From Naegleria gruberi (taxonomy: Eukaryota), in the NCBI GenBank assembly GCA_000004985.1, contig GG738902.1: a stretch of 64,000 bases of DNA; one strand, 5' to 3'. Positions 49,889 through 60,052 of the stretch are shown here, in pieces. The position numbers were made by a program, and so were the translations under genes. How positions within the stretch are numbered: position 1 is the stretch's first letter; each line of letters starts with the position of its first letter. The notes below the pieces were generated by a model. It saw nothing but the letters and a program-made list of their open reading frames with translations. It was not told where the DNA came from and made no database searches.

Positions 49889-50503
49889 ATGGGACAACAA
49901 CAAACAACAGAACCTCCGACGCTTCATGTGGTGATCACTGGATTGGATGCTCACGGAAAATCAACTTTTATTTCAAAAATAATTCGTGGAGGTGAGACTA
50001 CACTTCTCAGATATTGTCAGACAATAACTTCTAATATTTTATATCATCGCAAGATGGAAAATATTCATCTAGCATCAAATAATAAGAATATTGATGCAAT
50101 ATTTAATTTTACAATATTTGATTGTAATATTATGAGTCATGTATCAAAGAGAGTGTTATATCAATTTTGGAATAGTCTTGTTGTTGATTGCAAGTTGATT
50201 GTTTTTCTGTTTGATTCGGGTGATAAGGACAGAATTGAGGAGGTTAGGGAACAATTTCATAAAATTATGGAAATGGTATTGGAATTAAATTGTAAATTAT
50301 TGATTATTTCTTCAAAGGTGGATTTACCTTATCATTTACAAACAGATGAAATTGTGAATAACATTTTGGAAATTAAAAATTGGAATTTACCAGAGGATAG
50401 ATGGGCAATTCATACATTTGATCATAATATGAGATCTTCGAAAGTGGTGAATGCATTCAGTGATTTTGTAGATGGTGTAATTAAATCAATTCCACAAAAC
50501 TGA
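49889..50503 (+). CDS. Divergent ARF/ARL-like small GTPase with an N-terminal MG(Q)xxT myristoylation-type motif.
   Basis: An ARF-type P-loop (VVITGLDAHGKSTFI) is present. The G3 WDxGGQ motif is replaced by FDCNIMSH, and G4 NKxD reads SKVD. 204 aa, single exon. Confidence 0.55.
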   Translation: MGQQQTTEPPTLHVVITGLDAHGKSTFISKIIRGGETTLLRYCQTITSNILYHRKMENIHLASNNKNIDAIFNFTIFDCNIMSHVSKRVLYQFWNSLVVDCKLIVFLFDSGDKDRIEEVREQFHKIMEMVLELNCKLLIISSKVDLPYHLQTDEIVNNILEIKNWNLPEDRWAIHTFDHNMRSSKVVNAFSDFVDGVIKSIPQN

Positions 50504-50534: not shown

Positions 50535-51827
50535 TTATTGATCAGGTAATCTGAAATTCATTCTATCTACATAAAGCCATAACTTTCTAGGATCAATGTG
50601 TGGAGCTAGTGGACATTCGTATGGAACATTCCAAGCATTTGGAGTTGTACTACACCAAGTATTTGTTAATAGCTTGACAGTCGCAGTGTAGAGAGCTGGA
50701 CTCATTCTCAATTGTTGTTGCATTGGTAAATAGTAGAATTCAACCATGGCTCCAAAATTTCCTCCAATTTTTGCGAATTGATTTTGTGAAACTGATTTAC
50801 CATTGACACTAATTGGACAGCCTGCAAGAGTGGAATAATGACATAATTCTACAAGAAGTTGATCACAATCAGCATCTGTTACAATATTTTCCACAACTAC
50901 ATATCCAAATCTATGGAAGAAATCAATATGTCTTTGAGTGAGGAAGTGATCATTCTCTTGTAAAATCTGATCAATCACACTAACTGGATGTTCATCATCA
51001 ACAGTCAACAAATTCTGATAAGGTTGCTCATTGTAAAGACATTCACCGAGTGGGGTTAATGGTACAAGATCCTTTTCTGGTTTTAAAAATTGTTGTTCCA
51101 TTCTGAATTTAGTACCAAAATCATCTGGATGTTCAAAACGTTTTCTCTTTTCTTGCAATTGCTTGATTGTTTGATAATTGACCTTGTGAGCACAACTGTA
51201 AGCATGATAAAATACAGATCTAGGTCTATTCATATCATTGGCATCTGAATTTCTATGAGCTGTTCTATTATCAAAGAATATATAATCACCCTTCTTAATT
51301 GGAATATATTCCAATCTATCATGCTCCTTTACAATATTCCTCACATATTCCACCATTTCATCTGCACTATTCAATTGATCTAAAGTATTGTTAGCAGGTG
51401 GTGGATTCCAATTTTGTGGAATTCTTTGAACTTTCCTCACCAATTCATATAATGGTTTATCCTCCTCCTTATTAAATCTCAAATGATATGAACTAACCCA
51501 AGGAGATTTAGCTCTCATTTCACTTGCTGATCTCAATTTTAGATCCACTGCTGGAAAATACTTTTCACACACAGAGGCAAATCCAGGAATCACCTCCAAT
51601 CCACCCTCCTTCTTATGTCTATTGACACATCCATCAGTTAAACAAACCATCGATTGGAAAGGTCTAAATCTATCCAATGGACCATATGTAAAATCTGTCT
51701 TTAATTTACCCCACAAATTATATGGCCAACAATCCAAGTGAAGACCTGTTCCTGTTTGAGTCATTGTGATTTCATCTGATTCCGAGGAAGATGATGCTGT
51801 TGTGTTTTTCTTGTTTTTCGGTGGCAT
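50535..51827 (-). CDS. 2-oxoglutarate/Fe(II)-dependent dioxygenase superfamily protein (PhyH-like).
   Basis: An HxD motif (LHLDCW) is followed later by a His/Arg-Ser pair (DYIFFDNRTAHRNS), as in the jelly-roll oxygenase core. A PhyH-like segment FFHRFGYVVVENIVTDADCDQL lies in the C-terminal half. Confidence 0.4.
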   Translation of the reverse strand: MPPKNKKNTTASSSSESDEITMTQTGTGLHLDCWPYNLWGKLKTDFTYGPLDRFRPFQSMVCLTDGCVNRHKKEGGLEVIPGFASVCEKYFPAVDLKLRSASEMRAKSPWVSSYHLRFNKEEDKPLYELVRKVQRIPQNWNPPPANNTLDQLNSADEMVEYVRNIVKEHDRLEYIPIKKGDYIFFDNRTAHRNSDANDMNRPRSVFYHAYSCAHKVNYQTIKQLQEKRKRFEHPDDFGTKFRMEQQFLKPEKDLVPLTPLGECLYNEQPYQNLLTVDDEHPVSVIDQILQENDHFLTQRHIDFFHRFGYVVVENIVTDADCDQLLVELCHYSTLAGCPISVNGKSVSQNQFAKIGGNFGAMVEFYYLPMQQQLRMSPALYTATVKLLTNTWCSTTPNAWNVPYECPLAPHIDPRKLWLYVDRMNFRLPDQ

Positions 51828-52193: not shown

Positions 52194-53579
52194 ATGACTC
52201 AACACTTGTATGGAGATAAACCATTTTCTTCTTCCGATGAGTTGCAATCGATCAGCAGTATTAGAATTAATGACATTAGAATTGAGGAAATTAATAAATC
52301 AATGGAGGGAGAAACGATTCGCTTGATTGCAAGAGCTTCAAGAGTTGTAAAAAAGGGAAAATTATGTTTTGTTCGGTTGAGAAGAAACTCACATTCGATA
52401 CAGGCATGTTTCCTTGCAAAAAATGATCAAGAAAGGGAAATGGTTAAATATATTGGAGGAATTCCTCATGAATCAATAGTGGAAGTTGTTGGAATAATTG
52501 TTATGAGAAAGAGTAAGAGTAATGAAACTGTTTCAGAGTTGGAATTGGAAATGAAAGAGATTTATTGTTTATCAAGAGCTCAAAAATTGGATTATGAATT
52601 GGATGAATTGGAAGATATGAGGCAGAGTAGGTCCTTACATACTAAGAGATATGTCAGCTTGCGACATTCCTTTATGCATCATATTTTCAAATTGCAATCT
52701 TTAATTGGAAGAAAGTTTTGTGAATATATGTATTCGAAAGATTTTACAGAAATTCACACACCTCACATTGTTAAAAATCAAAGTGATAATAATATATCCA
52801 GTTTTACTTTTGATTATTTTGGTAATAGTGTTGAATTGACCACCTCTTCACATCTACATCAACAATTAGCTATTCATGGTGGATTGGATAGAGTATTTGA
52901 GATTTCTTGTGCATTTGAAAAGCACCATGGCTGTACGCATGTACACTTGAACGAAAAAACAACATTGAATTTTGGAATGACTATTGCCTCTCACTACCAT
53001 GAAGTAATATCTGTGGTGAAAGAGTTATTGAACTATATTATTGATGAAATATCAGAATATGAAGGATTGGAAGTAATTGCAAAGCATAACTCAAGGGGTC
53101 TAGAAAAATTAAAGAAAACAGAAATTTTGGAGCTCACATTCAAAGAAGCTGATGCCCTATTGATAGCCAATTGTTCAGAAAATGAATTTGGTGGATTTAT
53201 GGCACTTAGAGAAGTAGCAAGTTACTTTAAAGATTATACTGACATTTTGATTATTCAAAATAGTGCACATGAAGAAGTTGGTTGTTTTGAAATGCCAAGT
53301 TCAACTGGAAAGGGCTTTAACAATTTCATCATTCTTATTAGAGGAATTGTTGTTGGACGTGGATGCCAATATATTCACGATGAGGAATTGTTGAAGCATC
53401 AGGTTCGCTGTCATGCCCCTGATCTAGTATCAGCTTTGAAATATGGTGCTCAACCTTGTGGTGGATGTTCAATTGATTTAGAGTTATTCTTAATGCAATT
53501 CCTTCAATTAAGCAATGTTCGATTCACCTCTCTATTTCCAAGAGCTCCCACTATCTATGAAAATGAGCAACTACTTTAA
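52194..53579 (+). CDS. Cytoplasmic-type aspartyl-tRNA synthetase paralog (class IIb) with degenerate catalytic motifs, a likely pseudo-enzyme.
   Basis: An OB-fold anticodon-binding region (LIARASRVVKKGKLCFVRLRRNSHSIQACF), motif 1 (FTEIHTPHIV), a degenerate motif 2 (FEISCAFEKHHGCTHVHLNEK, where AspRS has FRAEDSNTHRHLTEF) and a strong motif 3 (GGCSIDLELFLMQFLQLSNVRFTSLFPRAP, where AspRS has [29 protein letters not shown]). Confidence 0.65.
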   Translation: MTQHLYGDKPFSSSDELQSISSIRINDIRIEEINKSMEGETIRLIARASRVVKKGKLCFVRLRRNSHSIQACFLAKNDQEREMVKYIGGIPHESIVEVVGIIVMRKSKSNETVSELELEMKEIYCLSRAQKLDYELDELEDMRQSRSLHTKRYVSLRHSFMHHIFKLQSLIGRKFCEYMYSKDFTEIHTPHIVKNQSDNNISSFTFDYFGNSVELTTSSHLHQQLAIHGGLDRVFEISCAFEKHHGCTHVHLNEKTTLNFGMTIASHYHEVISVVKELLNYIIDEISEYEGLEVIAKHNSRGLEKLKKTEILELTFKEADALLIANCSENEFGGFMALREVASYFKDYTDILIIQNSAHEEVGCFEMPSSTGKGFNNFIILIRGIVVGRGCQYIHDEELLKHQVRCHAPDLVSALKYGAQPCGGCSIDLELFLMQFLQLSNVRFTSLFPRAPTIYENEQLL

Positions 53580-53640: not shown

Positions 53641-56364
53641 TTACATGACTGAACACTTCTCATCATTTGACTTTTCCTTATTGTTCCTCTTCTTTTTCTT
53701 TCCTTCACTTTGATCATCAGTGTCAGATTCACTATCTTCATCATCTTTATCAGACAATGATCGAGCCAATGGTAAAATGTAATCATCAGCAGCAGAGACA
53801 CCCTTTCTCTTTTCATTGTAAGTCCATTGTAATTCACCATCTTCAATTCTGTAAGCAGAACAAATAGCAACACCCTTATCAGGCTTAACAAGAGGTGTGA
53901 AGAAAGATCTCACTACACACAATTGAGGATTACTAATAGTCTTGTCGTCTGTCTTTTTGGTTGCGAAACGTTTGCAGAATGAAATGTCAAAGCCCTTTTC
54001 AGCCTCTGACAAATCTCCACCATTTCCATGGTAACATTCATGAACCTTTTGCCATTTGACAGCACCATCCTTCAAATTAATGGCTATCAGTTGAACATCA
54101 ACACGTTGTTGAATAGTGAGGAATCTACGTTGATCAATAACTTGTCTAGAAAAGACCATTATTCTTGATTCTTCATTAGTATTCAAAAGAGGAGAAGAAA
54201 TGGAATGTTGAATATGTGAAAATTCAAACATGAATTGAGCATCCTTCTTCCATGAGAATGGTTGACTCCACTTGAGTTGGAAAGTTCCTTCTTGAACTGA
54301 TTTTTGAGATTGAACAAATTCATAGAATGAAATTGTTTTTTCGTCCTTTTGAATGGAAATGAAACCGTCCAATCTTGGAATACCTGGCTTGGTTTCGTTT
54401 GTTTGCTTTTCAACAATGATAATTCTATCATGTGAAACACCAGTCAATAATTGATCAATGTGGAGAATTCTACCAATATCTGGTTGAATAATTGCCCATT
54501 CATTCTTTTCACCAACAAGGAAGTGCCAATCAGTGATATCCTTGAACAATAAAGTCTTGGTCTTATTTTTGGTAGTGCTGTAGGAATTGGTTTGTGGAAT
54601 TTCACAAAGTTTCTTAATACTAATAATATGAGTTCTCTTTCCTTCTCTATTAACAATTCTCATTTCACCTTCAAATTCATTTACAATACAGAAAACTGGA
54701 GATTTCTTTGGTCTGAACATCATTTGTCTATCTCTTGATTGTCCAGAAGCAGAAACACTAACTGTTAAAGTGTTACCATCAAAAATATATAACTTTGGCT
54801 TTTCAATAAATCCATATGAAGTACTTCTGCTACTGCTACTATTACTTGTCTTGAAACTTTGTGTTCCAGAAGTAGTAGTGGTAATGTCACTACTTGTAAC
54901 AGGTGACAAGACAACATGTTGAGTATCGAGTGGATTTGTGAAAATGGTACTGATAGTGTGTGGAACTTGTGAATTAGTTGGAGTGGAATCATTTACACTT
55001 GGTGATAGACCAGGAATTGAAATGGTTCTTGTTCCTCTTGATTCACCAACTTGTTTAGTTTGTTCATCAGTCCAAATACTTGTCTGTTTGGAGAAATCAA
55101 TGCTCTTATCACGTACAATATTCTCACCAATTAAAACACAAATACCATCAAAGAAATCTTGTTTTCTATTATTTCCATTAACTTCAGTGAATGAAGAAAC
55201 GCAAGAAACACGTTCTCTCTTTTCATTAATCATGTGAAATTTAGTAATTGGATCATTAACAATCAAATTGACCTTTAAACCATTCTTCTTATTAAAACAA
55301 ATAACTTGTTGTGGAAGTTGAACAATGATACTATTCTCAGTTTGTGTGAAAGCATTAATAAATAAATAATTCACACGTCTACTTGATGGCAATTTCTCAT
55401 CAATTAGCTCACTCCACCTAACACACAAACCCAACAAATCAAAACAACCCAAAATGTTACCATACATGATATACACATAATGTCCATCATATAAATATAA
55501 ACAACTGTAATTTGTATATTGATAGGACAAATCAGGAGAGTCATTATAAGCTGTCAATGGATACAAATGTGTAACTTCATCTCCACACAATCCCTTAGGA
55601 ACTGGAGTTGCAGAAGTTCCAACCAAATTTGAATTATTTCCTCCTGTGGCACTACCAATAGAATTGCTAGAATTACCTCCTACATTTGGAGTAGTAGCAG
55701 TAGTATTAGTAGAAGAAGAAGTATTAGAAGAAGTATTCTTCAATGGAGTACTTGGTGAATTTGGTTGTTGAAGTTGCAATTGTTGTTGAGAAGACAAGGA
55801 TGATGAAGAATTGCTTGCTGGAAGAGAACCACCTTGTTGTAAAGCAAGTGCAGCAGTAGAGAGGACAATATTTGGTTGTTGAGATGAAGACAATTGTGAA
55901 GAGGATGAGGAAGCACTTCCACCACTTGTCTTACTGTCAGTAGTATTCAATGATTTTTGAATGACAGGTTCAGTATTTTGATATTGTGCAGGAATATGTG
56001 TATACAGAATAGTTACTCGTCTATTTTCTCTATTATAAGAATTTGATGTTGTTGTTGTATTAGAATTTGTATTTCCATAATGTCTAGAATAAATAGTTTC
56101 AAAAACAGACTTTCTAATAATTTCACGATCATTAAAATCAAATATACGTGCTCCTGTTGATGCGTCAAATAGAATATTATTGAATAAACAGCAACGATTT
56201 GGTGTGTGAAGAACTTGATATTGGAAACGCAAAGATTCCAAACAAAATGATGAAGAAACATGTAAAAGTGAATTGTTAATTTCATCATAGGTTAGGAATG
56301 GGAAAATATGTGGAAGGAGAAGTGAGAGTGCTTCTCCTTTATTGTTGGTGGTGGAAGAAGACAT
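53641..56364 (-). CDS. Large hypothetical protein of 907 aa with an N-terminal F-box-like motif and Ser/Thr/Gln-rich low-complexity regions.
   Basis: The N-terminus LSLLLPHIFPFLTYDEINNSLLHVSSSF is F-box-like. A long poly-S/T/Q region follows, then a C-terminal globular part that may be a beta-propeller and an acidic tail. Confidence 0.45.
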   Translation of the reverse strand: MSSSTTNNKGEALSLLLPHIFPFLTYDEINNSLLHVSSSFCLESLRFQYQVLHTPNRCCLFNNILFDASTGARIFDFNDREIIRKSVFETIYSRHYGNTNSNTTTTSNSYNRENRRVTILYTHIPAQYQNTEPVIQKSLNTTDSKTSGGSASSSSSQLSSSQQPNIVLSTAALALQQGGSLPASNSSSSLSSQQQLQLQQPNSPSTPLKNTSSNTSSSTNTTATTPNVGGNSSNSIGSATGGNNSNLVGTSATPVPKGLCGDEVTHLYPLTAYNDSPDLSYQYTNYSCLYLYDGHYVYIMYGNILGCFDLLGLCVRWSELIDEKLPSSRRVNYLFINAFTQTENSIIVQLPQQVICFNKKNGLKVNLIVNDPITKFHMINEKRERVSCVSSFTEVNGNNRKQDFFDGICVLIGENIVRDKSIDFSKQTSIWTDEQTKQVGESRGTRTISIPGLSPSVNDSTPTNSQVPHTISTIFTNPLDTQHVVLSPVTSSDITTTTSGTQSFKTSNSSSSRSTSYGFIEKPKLYIFDGNTLTVSVSASGQSRDRQMMFRPKKSPVFCIVNEFEGEMRIVNREGKRTHIISIKKLCEIPQTNSYSTTKNKTKTLLFKDITDWHFLVGEKNEWAIIQPDIGRILHIDQLLTGVSHDRIIIVEKQTNETKPGIPRLDGFISIQKDEKTISFYEFVQSQKSVQEGTFQLKWSQPFSWKKDAQFMFEFSHIQHSISSPLLNTNEESRIMVFSRQVIDQRRFLTIQQRVDVQLIAINLKDGAVKWQKVHECYHGNGGDLSEAEKGFDISFCKRFATKKTDDKTISNPQLCVVRSFFTPLVKPDKGVAICSAYRIEDGELQWTYNEKRKGVSAADDYILPLARSLSDKDDEDSESDTDDQSEGKKKKRNNKEKSNDEKCSVM

Positions 56365-56542: not shown

Positions 56543-59500
56543 TTATTGTCTTGAACATTGTGGATATTGTGAATTTCTAGAACTTGAAACAATCATAGCT
56601 GCTGTTAATCCTCTTTCATATTCACTGATAACACTGGAAAAGACATCTTTGAAATTTTCATAGTTGGCATCTTTGAGATATGACACAATATCAACATCAT
56701 CAATGGTTCTGACAAAGTCTTGTGAGTAGCTTGCTGGTGCAGTGAGAGAAAGTCCACGAATCATTCCAAACCACGAATATTCTGATTCCAAATCATTTTC
56801 AATTGCTGCCTTGTATTGATTTTTGATGTCGTTAAAGAAATTTTCATCCAATTCTTTCTTGAGTGATGAAATCCAAAATTCTACACTTCTTTGAATGTTG
56901 AGAATATCCTGACTATGGTTTGGATAGTCACCAGTTAAGAACATGGTTGTAGCAAGTCCAAAACCATTCAAAGACAAAGTTGACATTGTTCTAGAGACGG
57001 CAAAATATGAAAAACCACCTTGTGAACGAATTACTTCAAAGGAGTAAGCTGAAAGCAAGGCTTGTTGCAAGAGAGCTCTTGAGAGTGATGGGTTGGCAGC
57101 ATTTGCACCTTTGATTGGATAAATAGCTGTAACTAGAGCCTTTTCTCCAGCATAGGAGTTAACTTCACATGAATAGGTAGAATTAACAAGTGGAGATGTC
57201 TTTGGGAATGTTACTTCAAAGTTAGAAGCTTGATTCTTATCATAAAGATCAAAACCGACAATGGTTGGCTTTTGCTTAACTGGAATAGATCCGAACCATG
57301 TCTCTAATTGAGGCATAATGTTGTCAATAGAGACATCACCAACGATATTAATTTCAAATCTATTGATCAACTTTTCACCATCTTTCATAATTGAGAAGTG
57401 TTGGGAAACCCATTCTTGTACTGAGAGTGGATTAAGTTTCTTGAGATCTTCAATAGATGTACCATGGAATCTGTGTTCATCAGGGAATGCAGACTTGAGT
57501 ACCTTTTGAACAGAGTAAGTATTAAGAGTTGAAACTGATGTGAATTGGTCATCAATTTCGGTGTTAAGTTCTTTTTGGTATTTGGTAATAACCTTTTTCT
57601 TAACGTTATTATTGAAAATAGGATTCATAGAAAGTCTCAAAAGAAGAAGCTTGTTCTTGTAATCGGTGCTATCTACTTTACACAAGTAGGAAAGGTAAGA
57701 TTCTGGATAATTGATACAGGCCTCACTCAATGTTGTACTAATACTGAGCACATCTGCTGAGCAAGAAATTGGAAGACTTGTTGACTCTGGATAGTATGAA
57801 ACAGTACTTGCAACAAACTTGGTACCACCATTATATCCTTGATTAACAAAAGTACAGGCACCTTTGATATCTGAATTTTCAGTATTTTTACCACCAAGGG
57901 CTACAATTTCAATGTATGCAAGACCTTTTTGGTAGGCCATTTTGCTGTCTGACTTCTTAATATTAACTCTAACATCATTACTGAGAGAATAGACATAAAG
58001 AGACAAGTCATCCTTCTTTTGAACTAACTTGTATCCAGAAGATGCAGTTGGAAGTGTAATACTTGGAAGAGATGCTGAAAGACTACTAAGCATTGAAAGA
58101 GTGCTGGCATCCAAAGTAGTTGAACTACTGCTTTCTGAATTAATAATGGTATTAATAAAGCTTGCAATTTGTTCCTTGGTTGGTCTAAAGGAGGCTGATT
58201 TTGGATCAGATTTACCCATAATTATAGAGGCAGACATTTGAGTTGTACGTCTAATGTTTGCATACTTGACAGGCTTATCTTTGGTAATAATATCACTCAG
58301 ACCTTGAATCAAATATTGGGCATTGGCCTTTACGTGATCAGCTGTTGAACCAAGTGCAAAACTCACTCCCAAGAATTTAGAAAGTGATGCATAATTATCA
58401 TGCACGTTCAAATATTCAAATTTTGGATCTTCGTTACCAAGTAATTCATAAACGAGGGATGTAGAATCTTGGCTGTTTGCAAAGTAGGTTGGTGCAGAGA
58501 AAACATAATCAAGGGCATAGGAAAGGGCGACCAAAAGTGCAGAAGATGGTTCATCTGCAATACTCTTCAATTCTTCAACGCCAATCTTAAAGTCTTCTCT
58601 CCAAGTTGACAATTCTGGTTGTGGGCCTGGAGTCATAATTGAACAAATACCAATCTTTGATCCAAAAGCAAATTCGTTTGTGAAACTACATCCGGCCATT
58701 CTAATTGTGAGATCAAGGTCTGGATATTGCATTGTCATCTTGGTCATTACCTGTAAGGCATAGAGAACTTGGAATGTGAGATCACCAACTTGTCTTCTAT
58801 AAAAGTTATAATCACGAGGATAACTTTGATATTCGCTTGTAGTGATCAAATTGAAGAAGATTCCATTGAGTCCATTAACTTCCTCAATTTGAATTAAAGG
58901 TTCTACTGGAGTTGCAAATCCAATTTTAGCCTCTTCTGGTTTGTTTTCAACTGTTGAAACCTTTGAGGACCAATATTCTTTTACCATCTTTTCCAATTCG
59001 TCCAATTCAAAATCGCCAACAATATATAATTTCATATTGCTAAGCTTGTACCATTTGTCGTAATATTTCTTGAGATCATTAACAGTCCAACTTCTAATAA
59101 CATCAGTCTTTCCGATTGGGAATCTCTTTCCAATAGTAAAGGTACTACCTCCGTGATTTTCAAATGTTCTAGTGAGAGCATGATAATAACTATTGTTGGC
59201 CCTTCTGGCTTCTCCAAGAACAGCTCCCTTCTCAGTTTCCACGTATTCTGCTACATATTCACTTTGTTGAACTTGTGCAAAGAAAATATCCATAATATCT
59301 TCAAAGCTTTCCTTGGTATCGTCAATCTTATTTTCCAATAATTCGTAAACAGTACTTCTAAAACTAGTGAAAGCATTAAAACCTCCAACATTGCTGTTTT
59401 CAATTTTTCTCCAAACACCACCTCTACCTTTGAATGACTTGGAATTATCAAATGCCATATGTTCAACCATGTGACTGATACCTTGTTCGCTTTCTTCTTC

Positions 59501-60052
59501 ATTCACCGAACCAGTATAAACATGTAACAAGGCACTAAATCTCTTCTTATTAAAAGTATTCTTCATCAAAACATATCCAAGTCCATTTTGGGAAATTACA
59601 CCCTTTCTAATATTCTCAGCACTGGTAGCACCGGATGTTTTCGATTCGGATACTTTGGCTTGATAATTTGTGGTAATTTGTGGTGCAAGAACCATTAATC
59701 CGAACAAGTAAACAATAAGTAGTAAAATAATACCGATTGGGATACAACAACAACAACAAGTACAACAAGTTATGATCGAATTTGACACTTTTCTCTTGTT
59801 AATCAATGGTTGTCTTGAACGTTGTCTATCATCTGCAGTATACAAATAATTTGCATCATCCATTACTCGATTTTCATAATATTGATTAGTCGATCCTGTT
59901 TCACTTCTTTCCAAAGAAGGTCTATTCAATTCTCTCATCTCCAAATTTTCTAATTGATGAGTATTCTCTTCATCGTCACTGGCGTGTATTGCATCATTGG
60001 CAGAACCCTCATCGTGGTGATGGTCCGAAGGTTGACGATGATCATCACTCAT
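56543..60052 (-). CDS. M16-family (pitrilysin/insulinase-type) zinc metallopeptidase with an N-terminal transmembrane anchor, 1169 aa.
   Basis: The inverted zinc motif HxxEH (GISHMVEHMAF) is followed by the downstream M16 signature ...NAFTSFRSTVYEL. A Cys-rich juxtamembrane segment (TCCTCCCCC) and a transmembrane helix (IGIILLLIVYLFGLMVLAP) are present. Single exon. Confidence 0.75.
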   Translation of the reverse strand: MSDDHRQPSDHHHDEGSANDAIHASDDEENTHQLENLEMRELNRPSLERSETGSTNQYYENRVMDDANYLYTADDRQRSRQPLINKRKVSNSIITCCTCCCCCIPIGIILLLIVYLFGLMVLAPQITTNYQAKVSESKTSGATSAENIRKGVISQNGLGYVLMKNTFNKKRFSALLHVYTGSVNEEESEQGISHMVEHMAFDNSKSFKGRGGVWRKIENSNVGGFNAFTSFRSTVYELLENKIDDTKESFEDIMDIFFAQVQQSEYVAEYVETEKGAVLGEARRANNSYYHALTRTFENHGGSTFTIGKRFPIGKTDVIRSWTVNDLKKYYDKWYKLSNMKLYIVGDFELDELEKMVKEYWSSKVSTVENKPEEAKIGFATPVEPLIQIEEVNGLNGIFFNLITTSEYQSYPRDYNFYRRQVGDLTFQVLYALQVMTKMTMQYPDLDLTIRMAGCSFTNEFAFGSKIGICSIMTPGPQPELSTWREDFKIGVEELKSIADEPSSALLVALSYALDYVFSAPTYFANSQDSTSLVYELLGNEDPKFEYLNVHDNYASLSKFLGVSFALGSTADHVKANAQYLIQGLSDIITKDKPVKYANIRRTTQMSASIIMGKSDPKSASFRPTKEQIASFINTIINSESSSSTTLDASTLSMLSSLSASLPSITLPTASSGYKLVQKKDDLSLYVYSLSNDVRVNIKKSDSKMAYQKGLAYIEIVALGGKNTENSDIKGACTFVNQGYNGGTKFVASTVSYYPESTSLPISCSADVLSISTTLSEACINYPESYLSYLCKVDSTDYKNKLLLLRLSMNPIFNNNVKKKVITKYQKELNTEIDDQFTSVSTLNTYSVQKVLKSAFPDEHRFHGTSIEDLKKLNPLSVQEWVSQHFSIMKDGEKLINRFEINIVGDVSIDNIMPQLETWFGSIPVKQKPTIVGFDLYDKNQASNFEVTFPKTSPLVNSTYSCEVNSYAGEKALVTAIYPIKGANAANPSLSRALLQQALLSAYSFEVIRSQGGFSYFAVSRTMSTLSLNGFGLATTMFLTGDYPNHSQDILNIQRSVEFWISSLKKELDENFFNDIKNQYKAAIENDLESEYSWFGMIRGLSLTAPASYSQDFVRTIDDVDIVSYLKDANYENFKDVFSSVISEYERGLTAAMIVSSSRNSQYPQCSRQ

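Follow-up and report, generated by a model that had tools for sequence, protein, structure and literature searches.

The duplicates aspS1 and aspS2 are among the most pervasive recurrent gene duplications, with 14 independent events reported and no function given (von der Dunk & Snel 2020, PMC7414715). A review of proteins derived from aminoacyl-tRNA synthetases (aaRSs) tabulates only AS-A/AS-AR and ErdS as paralogs derived from aspartyl-tRNA synthetase (AspRS), and no dead full-length AspRS (PMC9437257). Here we describe an AspRS-like gene of Naegleria gruberi that lies on the plus strand of contig GG738902.1 (assembly GCA_000004985.1), within a 64,000-nucleotide stretch that was analyzed as a whole and is referred to below as the window. 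The open reading frame (ORF) at 52194..53579 is intron-less, runs from ATG to stop over 461 codons (461 residues), and is 100% identical to XP_002671814.1 (EFC39070.1; UniProt D2VVN2, D2VVN2_NAEGR) of N. gruberi NEG-M, the gene for which sits on a 305,921-bp scaffold and which both NCBI and UniProt label "aspartyl-tRNA synthetase". The protein has an intact AspRS fold, its catalytic machinery is gone, its reading frame has been maintained, and canonical AspRS enzymes exist elsewhere in the genome. On balance we favor the view that it is a catalytically dead, fold-retaining paralog of the cytosolic type, kept by selection, which may act by binding tRNA or by dimerizing. The gene and its relevant segments are as follows.

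52194..53579, plus strand: whole gene, putative AspRS-like pseudo-synthetase (homology searches, AlphaFold2 (AF2) model, Foldseek, codon usage)
52299..52577, plus strand: OB-fold anticodon-binding domain, approximately residues 36–128 (PF01336, yeast alignment)
52734..52769, plus strand: motif 1 and dimer-interface segment SKDFTEIHTPHI, residues 181–192 (invariant-column alignment)
52779..52796, plus strand: degenerate flipping loop, residues 196–201, canonical (A)SEGGA replaced by QSDNNI (alignment)
52836..52874, plus strand: degenerate aspartate-binding box, residues 215–227, canonical LAQSPQLYKQMAI replaced by LTTSSHLHQQLAI (alignment)
52899..52979, plus strand: degenerate motif 2 and its loop, residues 236–262, EISCAFEKHHGCTHVHLNEKTTLNFGM (alignment)
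53319..53381, plus strand: degenerate Mg2+/aspartate segment, residues 376–396, canonical NSYDIYLRGEEISSGAQRIHD replaced by NNFIILIRGIVVGRGCQYIHD (alignment)
53454..53492, plus strand: degenerate true motif 3, residues 421–433, canonical PHAGCGIGLERIV replaced by PCGGCSIDLELFL (alignment)
53514..53549, plus strand: conserved C-terminal tail NVRFTSLFPRAP, residues 441–452 (aligns with the canonical tail)

Canonical positions are given in yeast numbering, which was verified on structure 1asy, where adding 67 to the chain position yields R325, H334, F338, D342, K306, R485, and R531, as expected. The original prediction held that motif 2 is mutated from FRAED to FEKHH, and the alignment bears this out: canonical VFRAE(D/N)SNTHRHLTEF aligns without gaps to AFEKHHGCTHVHLNEK, such that FRAEx becomes FEKHH and the motif 2 arginine R325 becomes E242. 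No alternative register in HMMER or MAFFT alignments realigns motif 2 so that the arginine is kept. Further changes in this motif are E327 to H244, R333 to V250, D342 to N259, E344 to G261, and the adenine-stacking phenylalanine F338 to K255, which leaves only H334 (H251) and E337 (E254) as survivors. A second claim, that motif 3 is near-identical to the canonical one, has to be withdrawn, as the stretch in question (NVRFTSLFPRAP) is the conserved C-terminal tail that follows motif 3. In the real motif 3 the canonical core GxGIGLER reads CSIDLEL (GIGLER to SIDLEL), with G526 replaced by S426, G528 by D428, and the invariant R531 by L431. Both invariant arginines of class II synthetases have therefore been lost, one to E242 and the other to L431.

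The damage extends to the remaining parts of the active site. In the flipping loop SEGG has become SDNN, with both glycines replaced by asparagine and the loop glutamate (yeast E281, E352 in Plasmodium vivax AspRS (PvAspRS)) replaced by D198. The aspartate box QSPQLYKQ reads TSSHLHQQ, which converts Q303 into H220 and K306 into Q223, and in the Mg2+/aspartate segment YDIYLRGEEISSGAQRIHD is replaced by FIILIRGIVVGRGCQYIHD, with D471 changed to I379, E478 to V386, and R485 to Y393. Crystallography of PvAspRS identified E352, Q374, K377, R396, E398, H405, E554, and R561 as the residues that contact Asp-AMP or its analogues and Mg2+ (PMC12262901). In that work E352 touches the aspartate amino group, Q374 and K377 bind the aspartate moiety, E554 is a Mg2+ contact, R561 is an aspartate contact, and a role is also given for the motif 2 arginine R396. 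The spacing of these eight residues fits yeast E281, Q303, K306, R325, E327, H334, E478, and R485, and the Naegleria copy keeps only the equivalent of H405, although the change at E352 is conservative (Asp). When 15 key active-site positions were compared across 148 aligned sequences, 14 were changed in the Naegleria copy and 10 in the next worst sequence, while 99 of the 148 showed no change at all.

The prediction of a pseudo-synthetase is thus supported, and is stronger than first stated: the destruction is not confined to motif 2 but also takes in motif 3, the flipping loop, and the aspartate pocket. Judged from these replacements, the protein very probably lacks aminoacylation activity. 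Since the replacements cover motifs 2 and 3 as well as the flipping loop and the ligands of aspartate and Mg2+, it cannot be classified as an AspRS enzyme, and its database name is very likely wrong at the functional level.

N. gruberi has two other AspRS genes. A search for a second, canonical cytosolic enzyme, which the original prediction had called for, identified XP_002674789.1 (D2VME1, P0432), a 562-residue protein encoded on another scaffold (381,539 bp) in which all motifs are intact (ASEGGA, QSPQLYKQ, FRAEKSFTHRHLTEF, RGEEISSGAQRIHD, and GIGLER); the degenerate copy is therefore not the sole cytosolic AspRS. Orthologs of XP_002674789.1 are found in N. fowleri (P0121, 81% identical to the cluster representative P0125) and in Willaertia (P0123, 74% identical to the N. 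fowleri protein). XP_002675253.1, an AspRS of bacterial type that carries a presequence at its N-terminus, is listed among the mitochondrial proteins of N. gruberi (Horvathova et al., PMC8134430 supplement). With both a canonical cytosolic and a mitochondrial AspRS present, the degenerate copy is dispensable for charging. A role as the mitochondrial AspRS was considered and ruled out, given the bacterial-type mitochondrial enzyme and the N-terminus of the AspRS-like protein, which is acidic and unlike a presequence.

Canonical Naegleria-type AspRS genes, 81–84% identical to that of N. fowleri, also occur in environmental data: L003 (Logan SRR15442816), L001 and L002 (JGI 3300002220, SRR636569), and L004 (ENA ERZ929261). 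The L004 protein and the canonical enzyme of N. gruberi share at least 90% identity, which indicates that close relatives of N. gruberi are present in public metagenomes. The dead paralog was not found alongside the canonical genes of L001–L004.

We also considered whether the protein could still be an aaRS, either organellar or with an altered amino acid or tRNA specificity, in the manner of the active mitochondrial eukaryote-type AspRS2 of Trypanosoma brucei. Kinetoplastids reportedly use a divergent eukaryote-type AspRS paralog in their mitochondria (Charriere and colleagues, 2009), and this precedent speaks for such a role. So do the two AspRSs of Leishmania (PMC3532385), the name given to the protein by NCBI and UniProt, and a Bodo paralog (P0303) that also lacks the SEGG loop. 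However, both class II arginines, the adenine-stacking phenylalanine, the Mg2+ ligands (now I379 and V386), and the aspartate-binding Q, K, D, and R have all been replaced in the Naegleria copy, whereas the other degenerate paralogs described below keep the motif 3 arginine and most of them the motif 2 arginine. Together with the mitochondrial enzyme and the acidic N-terminus, this makes a remaining aaRS function very improbable.

In contrast to the active site, the fold has been preserved, as predicted, and homology to AspRS extends along the whole protein. The Pfam family tRNA-synt_2 matches residues 149–450 (4.9e-29, 101.8 bits, cut-off 25), which corresponds to the class II catalytic core fold, and the OB-fold family tRNA_anti-codon (PF01336) gives a weak match to residues 44–125 (24 bits, just below the cut-off of 27). 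The Pfam scan revealed no domain besides these two AspRS domains, and in particular no metal-binding family and no DUF2156. A search of solved structures returned AspRSs from Leishmania (6od8, 4.6e-50), human (DARS 4j15 and 6iy6, ca. 3e-45), and yeast (1asy and 1eov, ca. 4e-42; 1asy 3.6e-42), with alignments that span residues 6–452. An AF2 model built from a 91-sequence alignment has a mean predicted local distance difference test score (pLDDT) of 88.6 and a predicted template-modeling score of 0.89, with the β-barrel of the OB domain modeled at pLDDT >95. The best Foldseek matches of this model are the yeast AspRS structures 1eov and 1asy (template-modeling score 0.88, E ca. 1e-42).

Losses are not spread evenly over this fold. 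An alignment of 90 canonical AspRSs, eukaryotic and archaeal-type, has 86 columns with conservation of 90% or more, of which the Naegleria copy has kept 43 and lost 43; ligand-contact columns account for 1 kept and 13 lost, and the remaining columns for 42 kept and 28 lost (Fisher p = 2.7e-4). Retention is high in the OB fold (5/6 conserved columns) and in the hinge and motif 1 (9/13, including FxEIHTP). The anticodon-binding domain and motif 1 are accordingly present, as the original prediction had it: F59, R63, Q70, E93, and E117 are kept in the OB fold, and motif 1 (DFTEIHTPHI) is intact, with F184, E186, I187, H188, T189, and the invariant proline P190. In the alignment, F59, Q70, and E117 are the counterparts of yeast F127, Q138, and E188, which contact U35 and G34 by stacking or hydrogen bonding in the yeast AspRS–tRNA-Asp complex. 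The OB domain has a pI of 9.4 and a net charge of +5, compared with 9.05 and +4 in the canonical enzyme. The C-terminal tail retains N441, R443, S446, F448, P449, and R450, and the protein stops nine residues past this FPR tail.

This pattern bears on whether the gene is still in use or is a non-functional relic, that is, a duplicated AspRS gene that is decaying and has remained open by chance or youth. We modeled neutral drift by mutating the canonical Naegleria AspRS coding sequence of L004 randomly, at the base composition of the window, down to 32% protein identity in 300 runs. The simulated sequences carried a mean of 29 in-frame stops and a minimum of 15, and none of the 300 runs was free of stops, whereas the real ORF contains no stop and all of its indels are in frame. 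That drift to this level of identity always brought in at least 15 stops speaks strongly against a decaying pseudogene. The in-frame codon usage score is 0.24 bits per codon, a value inside the span of 15 neighboring genes (0.17–0.60), and the five remaining frames score −0.35 to −0.82; codon usage is thus gene-like in the correct frame alone. The open ORF, the frame-specific codon usage, and the non-uniform retention of conserved columns together imply continued selection on the protein, and the gene is very probably maintained by selection rather than being a relic. Decay would fit the orphan status of the gene (other Naegleria and heterolobosean proteomes yielded no ortholog), its terminal branch of approximately 6.6 times the median, the loss of half of the conserved columns, and the lack of any sign of expression in indexed papers or in the listed entries of proteome supplements. 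However, the stop-free frame, the concentration of losses in ligand contacts while the OB fold, hinge, and motif 1 are mostly kept, and the confident, intact AF2 fold make a relic quite unlikely.

A non-catalytic function is proposed on this basis. Replacement of the ATP, Mg2+, aspartate, and acceptor-end contacts would have abolished aspartate activation and tRNA charging, while selection would have kept the frame, the fold, the OB residues that read the anticodon (U35 and G34 of tRNA-Asp), and the dimer interface of motif 1. As the anticodon-reading OB face and the motif 1 interface are retained, dimerization and recognition of G34–U35 loops probably persist. The protein could then form a homodimer that binds tRNA-Asp-like anticodon loops (G34–U35) without charging them, and so serve as a tRNA-Asp-binding factor; alternatively, it could pair with a canonical AspRS subunit as a regulatory or poisoning partner. 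A regulatory function, which the original prediction raised, is likewise a proposal. That it works through tRNA binding, dimerization, or both is a tentative proposal, to which we give slightly less than even weight.

The composition of the former active site raises another possibility, namely that the pocket has been repurposed as a His/Cys-lined metal site or a site for a new small ligand, which would make the protein a sensor or a new enzyme and not merely a tRNA binder. Histidine and cysteine make up 5.0% and 2.6% of its residues, compared with 1.5–2.4% and 0.4–1.8% in 13 canonical AspRSs, a two- to threefold excess, and they are overrepresented among replaced conserved positions (8/41 versus 27/420 elsewhere, p = 0.0076). 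Many lie in the degenerate segments: motif 2 contains EKHHGCTHVH, the aspartate box contains SSHLHQQ (residues 220–251), and the former aspartate and motif 3 segments contain C391, C422, and C425 (GCQY and PCGGCS, residues 391–425). Paralogs from Podila and from environmental contigs have also gained histidine at the Y305 and K306 positions (RRHHQ, RWHHY). Nevertheless, a relaxed region can gain His and Cys without function, so the enrichment could be due to chance; no metal-binding family is matched by the two-domain Pfam annotation, and the ATP site that ligase chemistry requires is gone. We regard a repurposed pocket as unlikely.

To place the degenerate copy among AspRSs, we return to its relatives. 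Ortholog searches comprised a word-indexed search over 5.8 billion clusters, a full HMMER search over 1.84 billion representatives, an exact-sequence contig look-up, and a scan of JGI metagenomes. After the self-hit, the best matches were AspRSs at 30–35% identity, and none was closer than approximately 35%. The top BLAST matches are the canonical AspRSs of Willaertia (232 bits) and N. gruberi (214 bits), with degenerate copies from other organisms ranking 29th to 212th of 237. In neighbor-joining (NJ) trees the sister of the Naegleria copy was eukaryotic in 100 of 100 bootstraps and never archaeal. An origin from a giant virus or an archaeon was rejected on the strength of this result and of the native codon usage. 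When other degenerate copies were left out of the NJ analysis, the Naegleria/Willaertia clade was the sister in only 14% of replicates. Residues that are signatures of the Naegleria clade were tried as evidence for recent duplication within the lineage and rejected, as there is a single match (C425), which is no better than for control clades. Duplication within the lineage followed by very fast divergence is the simplest reading of these sequence comparisons, but is not proven.

A screen of the key residues in the top 150 HMMER matches revealed partly degenerate AspRS paralogs in Dictyostelium discoideum (P0323), Acytostelium subglobosum (P0385), Tetrahymena thermophila (P0326), Podila humilis (P0290), and Bodo saltans (P0303), and on environmental eukaryotic contigs (P0288, P0320, P0324/P0414, and P0357). 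The SEGG loop has been lost in every one of them, and most carry substitutions at E327, the RPFY arginine, and E478, while the OB-fold F and Q, motif 1, and the motif 3 arginine are kept. Several of these paralogs carry an ordinary AspRS annotation. The Acytostelium gene (SAMD00019534_068300) is two locus tags from the canonical P0251 (SAMD00019534_068320) on the same 822,424-bp scaffold, which suggests a near-tandem duplication.

These paralogs could in principle belong with the Naegleria copy to a single ancient, vertically inherited family of AspRS-like pseudo-enzymes, shared among Dictyostelium, ciliates, and others and derived from one old duplication. When degenerate paralogs were included and all columns used, the NJ sister of the Naegleria copy was a degenerate paralog in 99 of 100 bootstraps (the environmental P0357 in 49). 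A hidden Markov model (HMM) of degenerate paralogs scored the Naegleria protein at 347 bits and that of canonical enzymes at 270 bits, a preference of 77 bits that is reversed in divergent canonical AspRSs from archaea, which served as a control. Strings in common include T(S/T)L(D/N)F(E/G)M, RG.VV, and LE.FLMQF. However, support for joining the degenerate paralogs drops to 59%, and is scattered, once conserved columns are removed. The named paralogs each match the canonical enzyme of their own lineage best (Podila that of Mucoromycota/Glomeromycota, 50%; dictyostelid that of dictyostelids), which indicates independent duplications, and the best BLAST matches of the Naegleria copy are likewise the canonical enzymes of Willaertia and N. 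gruberi. Quartets point in the same direction. Sites at which both fast copies have the same residue, as do both slow copies (nR), outnumber nS for Dictyostelium (15 versus 3, p = 0.0075), Acytostelium (11 versus 1), Podila (16 versus 4), Tetrahymena (16 versus 5), and the environmental P0357 (19 versus 1), but nQ is about equal to or above nR, with nQ ≥ nR in most pairs. Recurrent parallel changes include S246G, Y378F, I387V, M225L, P219S, and Y222H. Since BLAST and quartet nQ point the other way, the NJ grouping is treated as probable long-branch attraction or convergence, and with 14 independent duplications inferred elsewhere (PMC7414715) a common ancient family is improbable. Instead, duplicated eukaryotic AspRS genes seem to have arrived at one fate repeatedly ("aspS2-like"), with the Naegleria copy as an extreme instance, and the excess of nR over nS and the HMM preference are in keeping with such a similarity of fate.

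The gene for P0357, the commonest NJ sister, lies at L005:1731-3138 (JGI metagenome 3300062135), where the gene call is too short. An upstream ORF at 1731–2009 encodes the first half of the OB fold and seems to be linked to the called part by an intron of approximately 28–31 nucleotides (GTAAGC donor at 2006).

Several points weigh against a selected, dead paralog that binds tRNA or dimerizes. No ortholog was found in N. fowleri, Willaertia, or Acrasis, or among the approximately 15 billion proteins searched. The gene is thus an orphan, which precludes comparison of synteny and of nonsynonymous to synonymous substitution rates, and it might be young and on its way out. The accessions of XP_002671814.1 occur in no indexed paper, and the protein is not among the listed entries of two N. 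gruberi proteome supplements, an absence that is uninformative. The NJ joining to degenerate copies is prone to long-branch attraction and is probably to be read as that or as convergence, and the signal of a common fate could in part stem from parallel relaxation and an AT-biased composition, and not from a shared function. Finally, tRNA binding and dimerization are deduced from retained residues alone, and with the Lys-rich tRNA-binding extension at the N-terminus and the acceptor-contacting motif 2 loop both gone, affinity for tRNA would be weaker. Taken together with the evidence for an intact fold, a destroyed active site, and a maintained frame, these points leave the reading of a selected, non-catalytic AspRS paralog somewhat more probable than not, and we adopt it with modest confidence.

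The surroundings of the gene are those of ordinary eukaryotic genes. There are no tRNA genes within the window, and nothing about the neighbors in the window points to a mobile element, to an inserted virus, or to genes clustered by function. The nearest features are the following.

49889–50503, plus strand: Arf-family small-GTPase-like ORF, 204 residues, with an unusual P-loop, GLDAHGKST (Pfam Arf, 3.9e-14)
50535–51827, minus strand: 430-residue ORF with weak Gig2-like/phytanoyl-CoA dioxygenase (PhyH-like) similarity
53641–56364, minus strand: 907-residue ORF with Ser/Asn/Thr/Gln low-complexity runs (no Pfam match)
56543–60052, minus strand: insulinase-like M16 peptidase, 1169 residues (Peptidase_M16 and M16_C)

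The 430-residue ORF and the AspRS-like gene are transcribed in divergent directions from either side of a 366-bp intergenic region, and the 907-residue ORF converges on the AspRS-like gene, with 61 bp between the stop codons. Further neighbors are OsmC, Got1/Sft2, epimerase, and TLDc genes.

In practical terms, reconstructions of Naegleria metabolism or translation should leave XP_002671814.1 out of their AspRS count, and it should not be treated as a homolog of a drug target either. Pseudo-synthetases and recurrent aspS2-type duplicates are known; what is new is the Naegleria copy as an extreme example. A member without catalytic residues but with anticodon-binding and dimer surfaces narrows the hypotheses for aspS2-type genes to non-catalytic ones, and provides a clean test protein for recurrent AspRS duplicates. 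A broader and rather speculative idea, which we consider unlikely as it stands, is that AspRS duplicates have repeatedly (at least 14 times) become a class of non-catalytic proteins that bind tRNA-Asp or partner with AspRS, of which the Naegleria copy with its His/Cys-lined pocket would be one member. If so, this copy would be a natural "knock-out" revealing that the selected function of the class needs no aminoacylation, for example as a regulatory heterodimer subunit or as a tRNA-Asp chaperone or sensor with a new ligand or metal site.

Comparison with characterized proteins helps to define what kind of paralog this is. With eukaryotic cytosolic AspRS (yeast Dps1, 1ASY/1EOV; human DARS1, 4J15; N. 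gruberi XP_002674789.1) it shares the OB-fold anticodon domain, the hinge, and the class IIb core, at 30–33% identity over the full length, and it has kept motif 1, the F, Q, and E that read the anticodon, and the FPR tail at the C-terminus; the Lys-rich extension at the N-terminus, however, is missing, as is part of the insertion in the hinge. AsnA/AS-AR and ErdS likewise arose from the AspRS catalytic core by duplication. AsnA, however, has no anticodon-binding domain and keeps ATP binding and aspartate activation, whereas the Naegleria copy is the reverse, with the OB domain present and the ATP and aspartate sites lost; ErdS is an active AspRS fused to a C-terminal DUF2156, whereas the Naegleria copy has no extra domain. 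A parallel in fate is offered by HisZ, the regulatory subunit of ATP-phosphoribosyltransferase, and by the inactive half of the trypanosomatid TyrRS pseudo-dimer, in which an aaRS fold was also kept after duplication, the aminoacylation site disabled, and the scaffold reused (PMC9437257). These derive from other parent synthetases and have known partners. Like the aspS2-type duplicates (PMC7414715), the Naegleria copy is a second cytosolic-type AspRS that evolves asymmetrically and fast beside a conserved one, and the pattern of a lost SEGG loop, altered E327, RPFY arginine, and E478, and retained OB-fold residues and motif 1 is common to both. Unlike the Naegleria copy, the other aspS2-type proteins all keep the motif 3 arginine and most keep that of motif 2; having lost both arginines as well as F338, D342, and R485, the Naegleria copy is the most degenerate of the 148 sequences compared.

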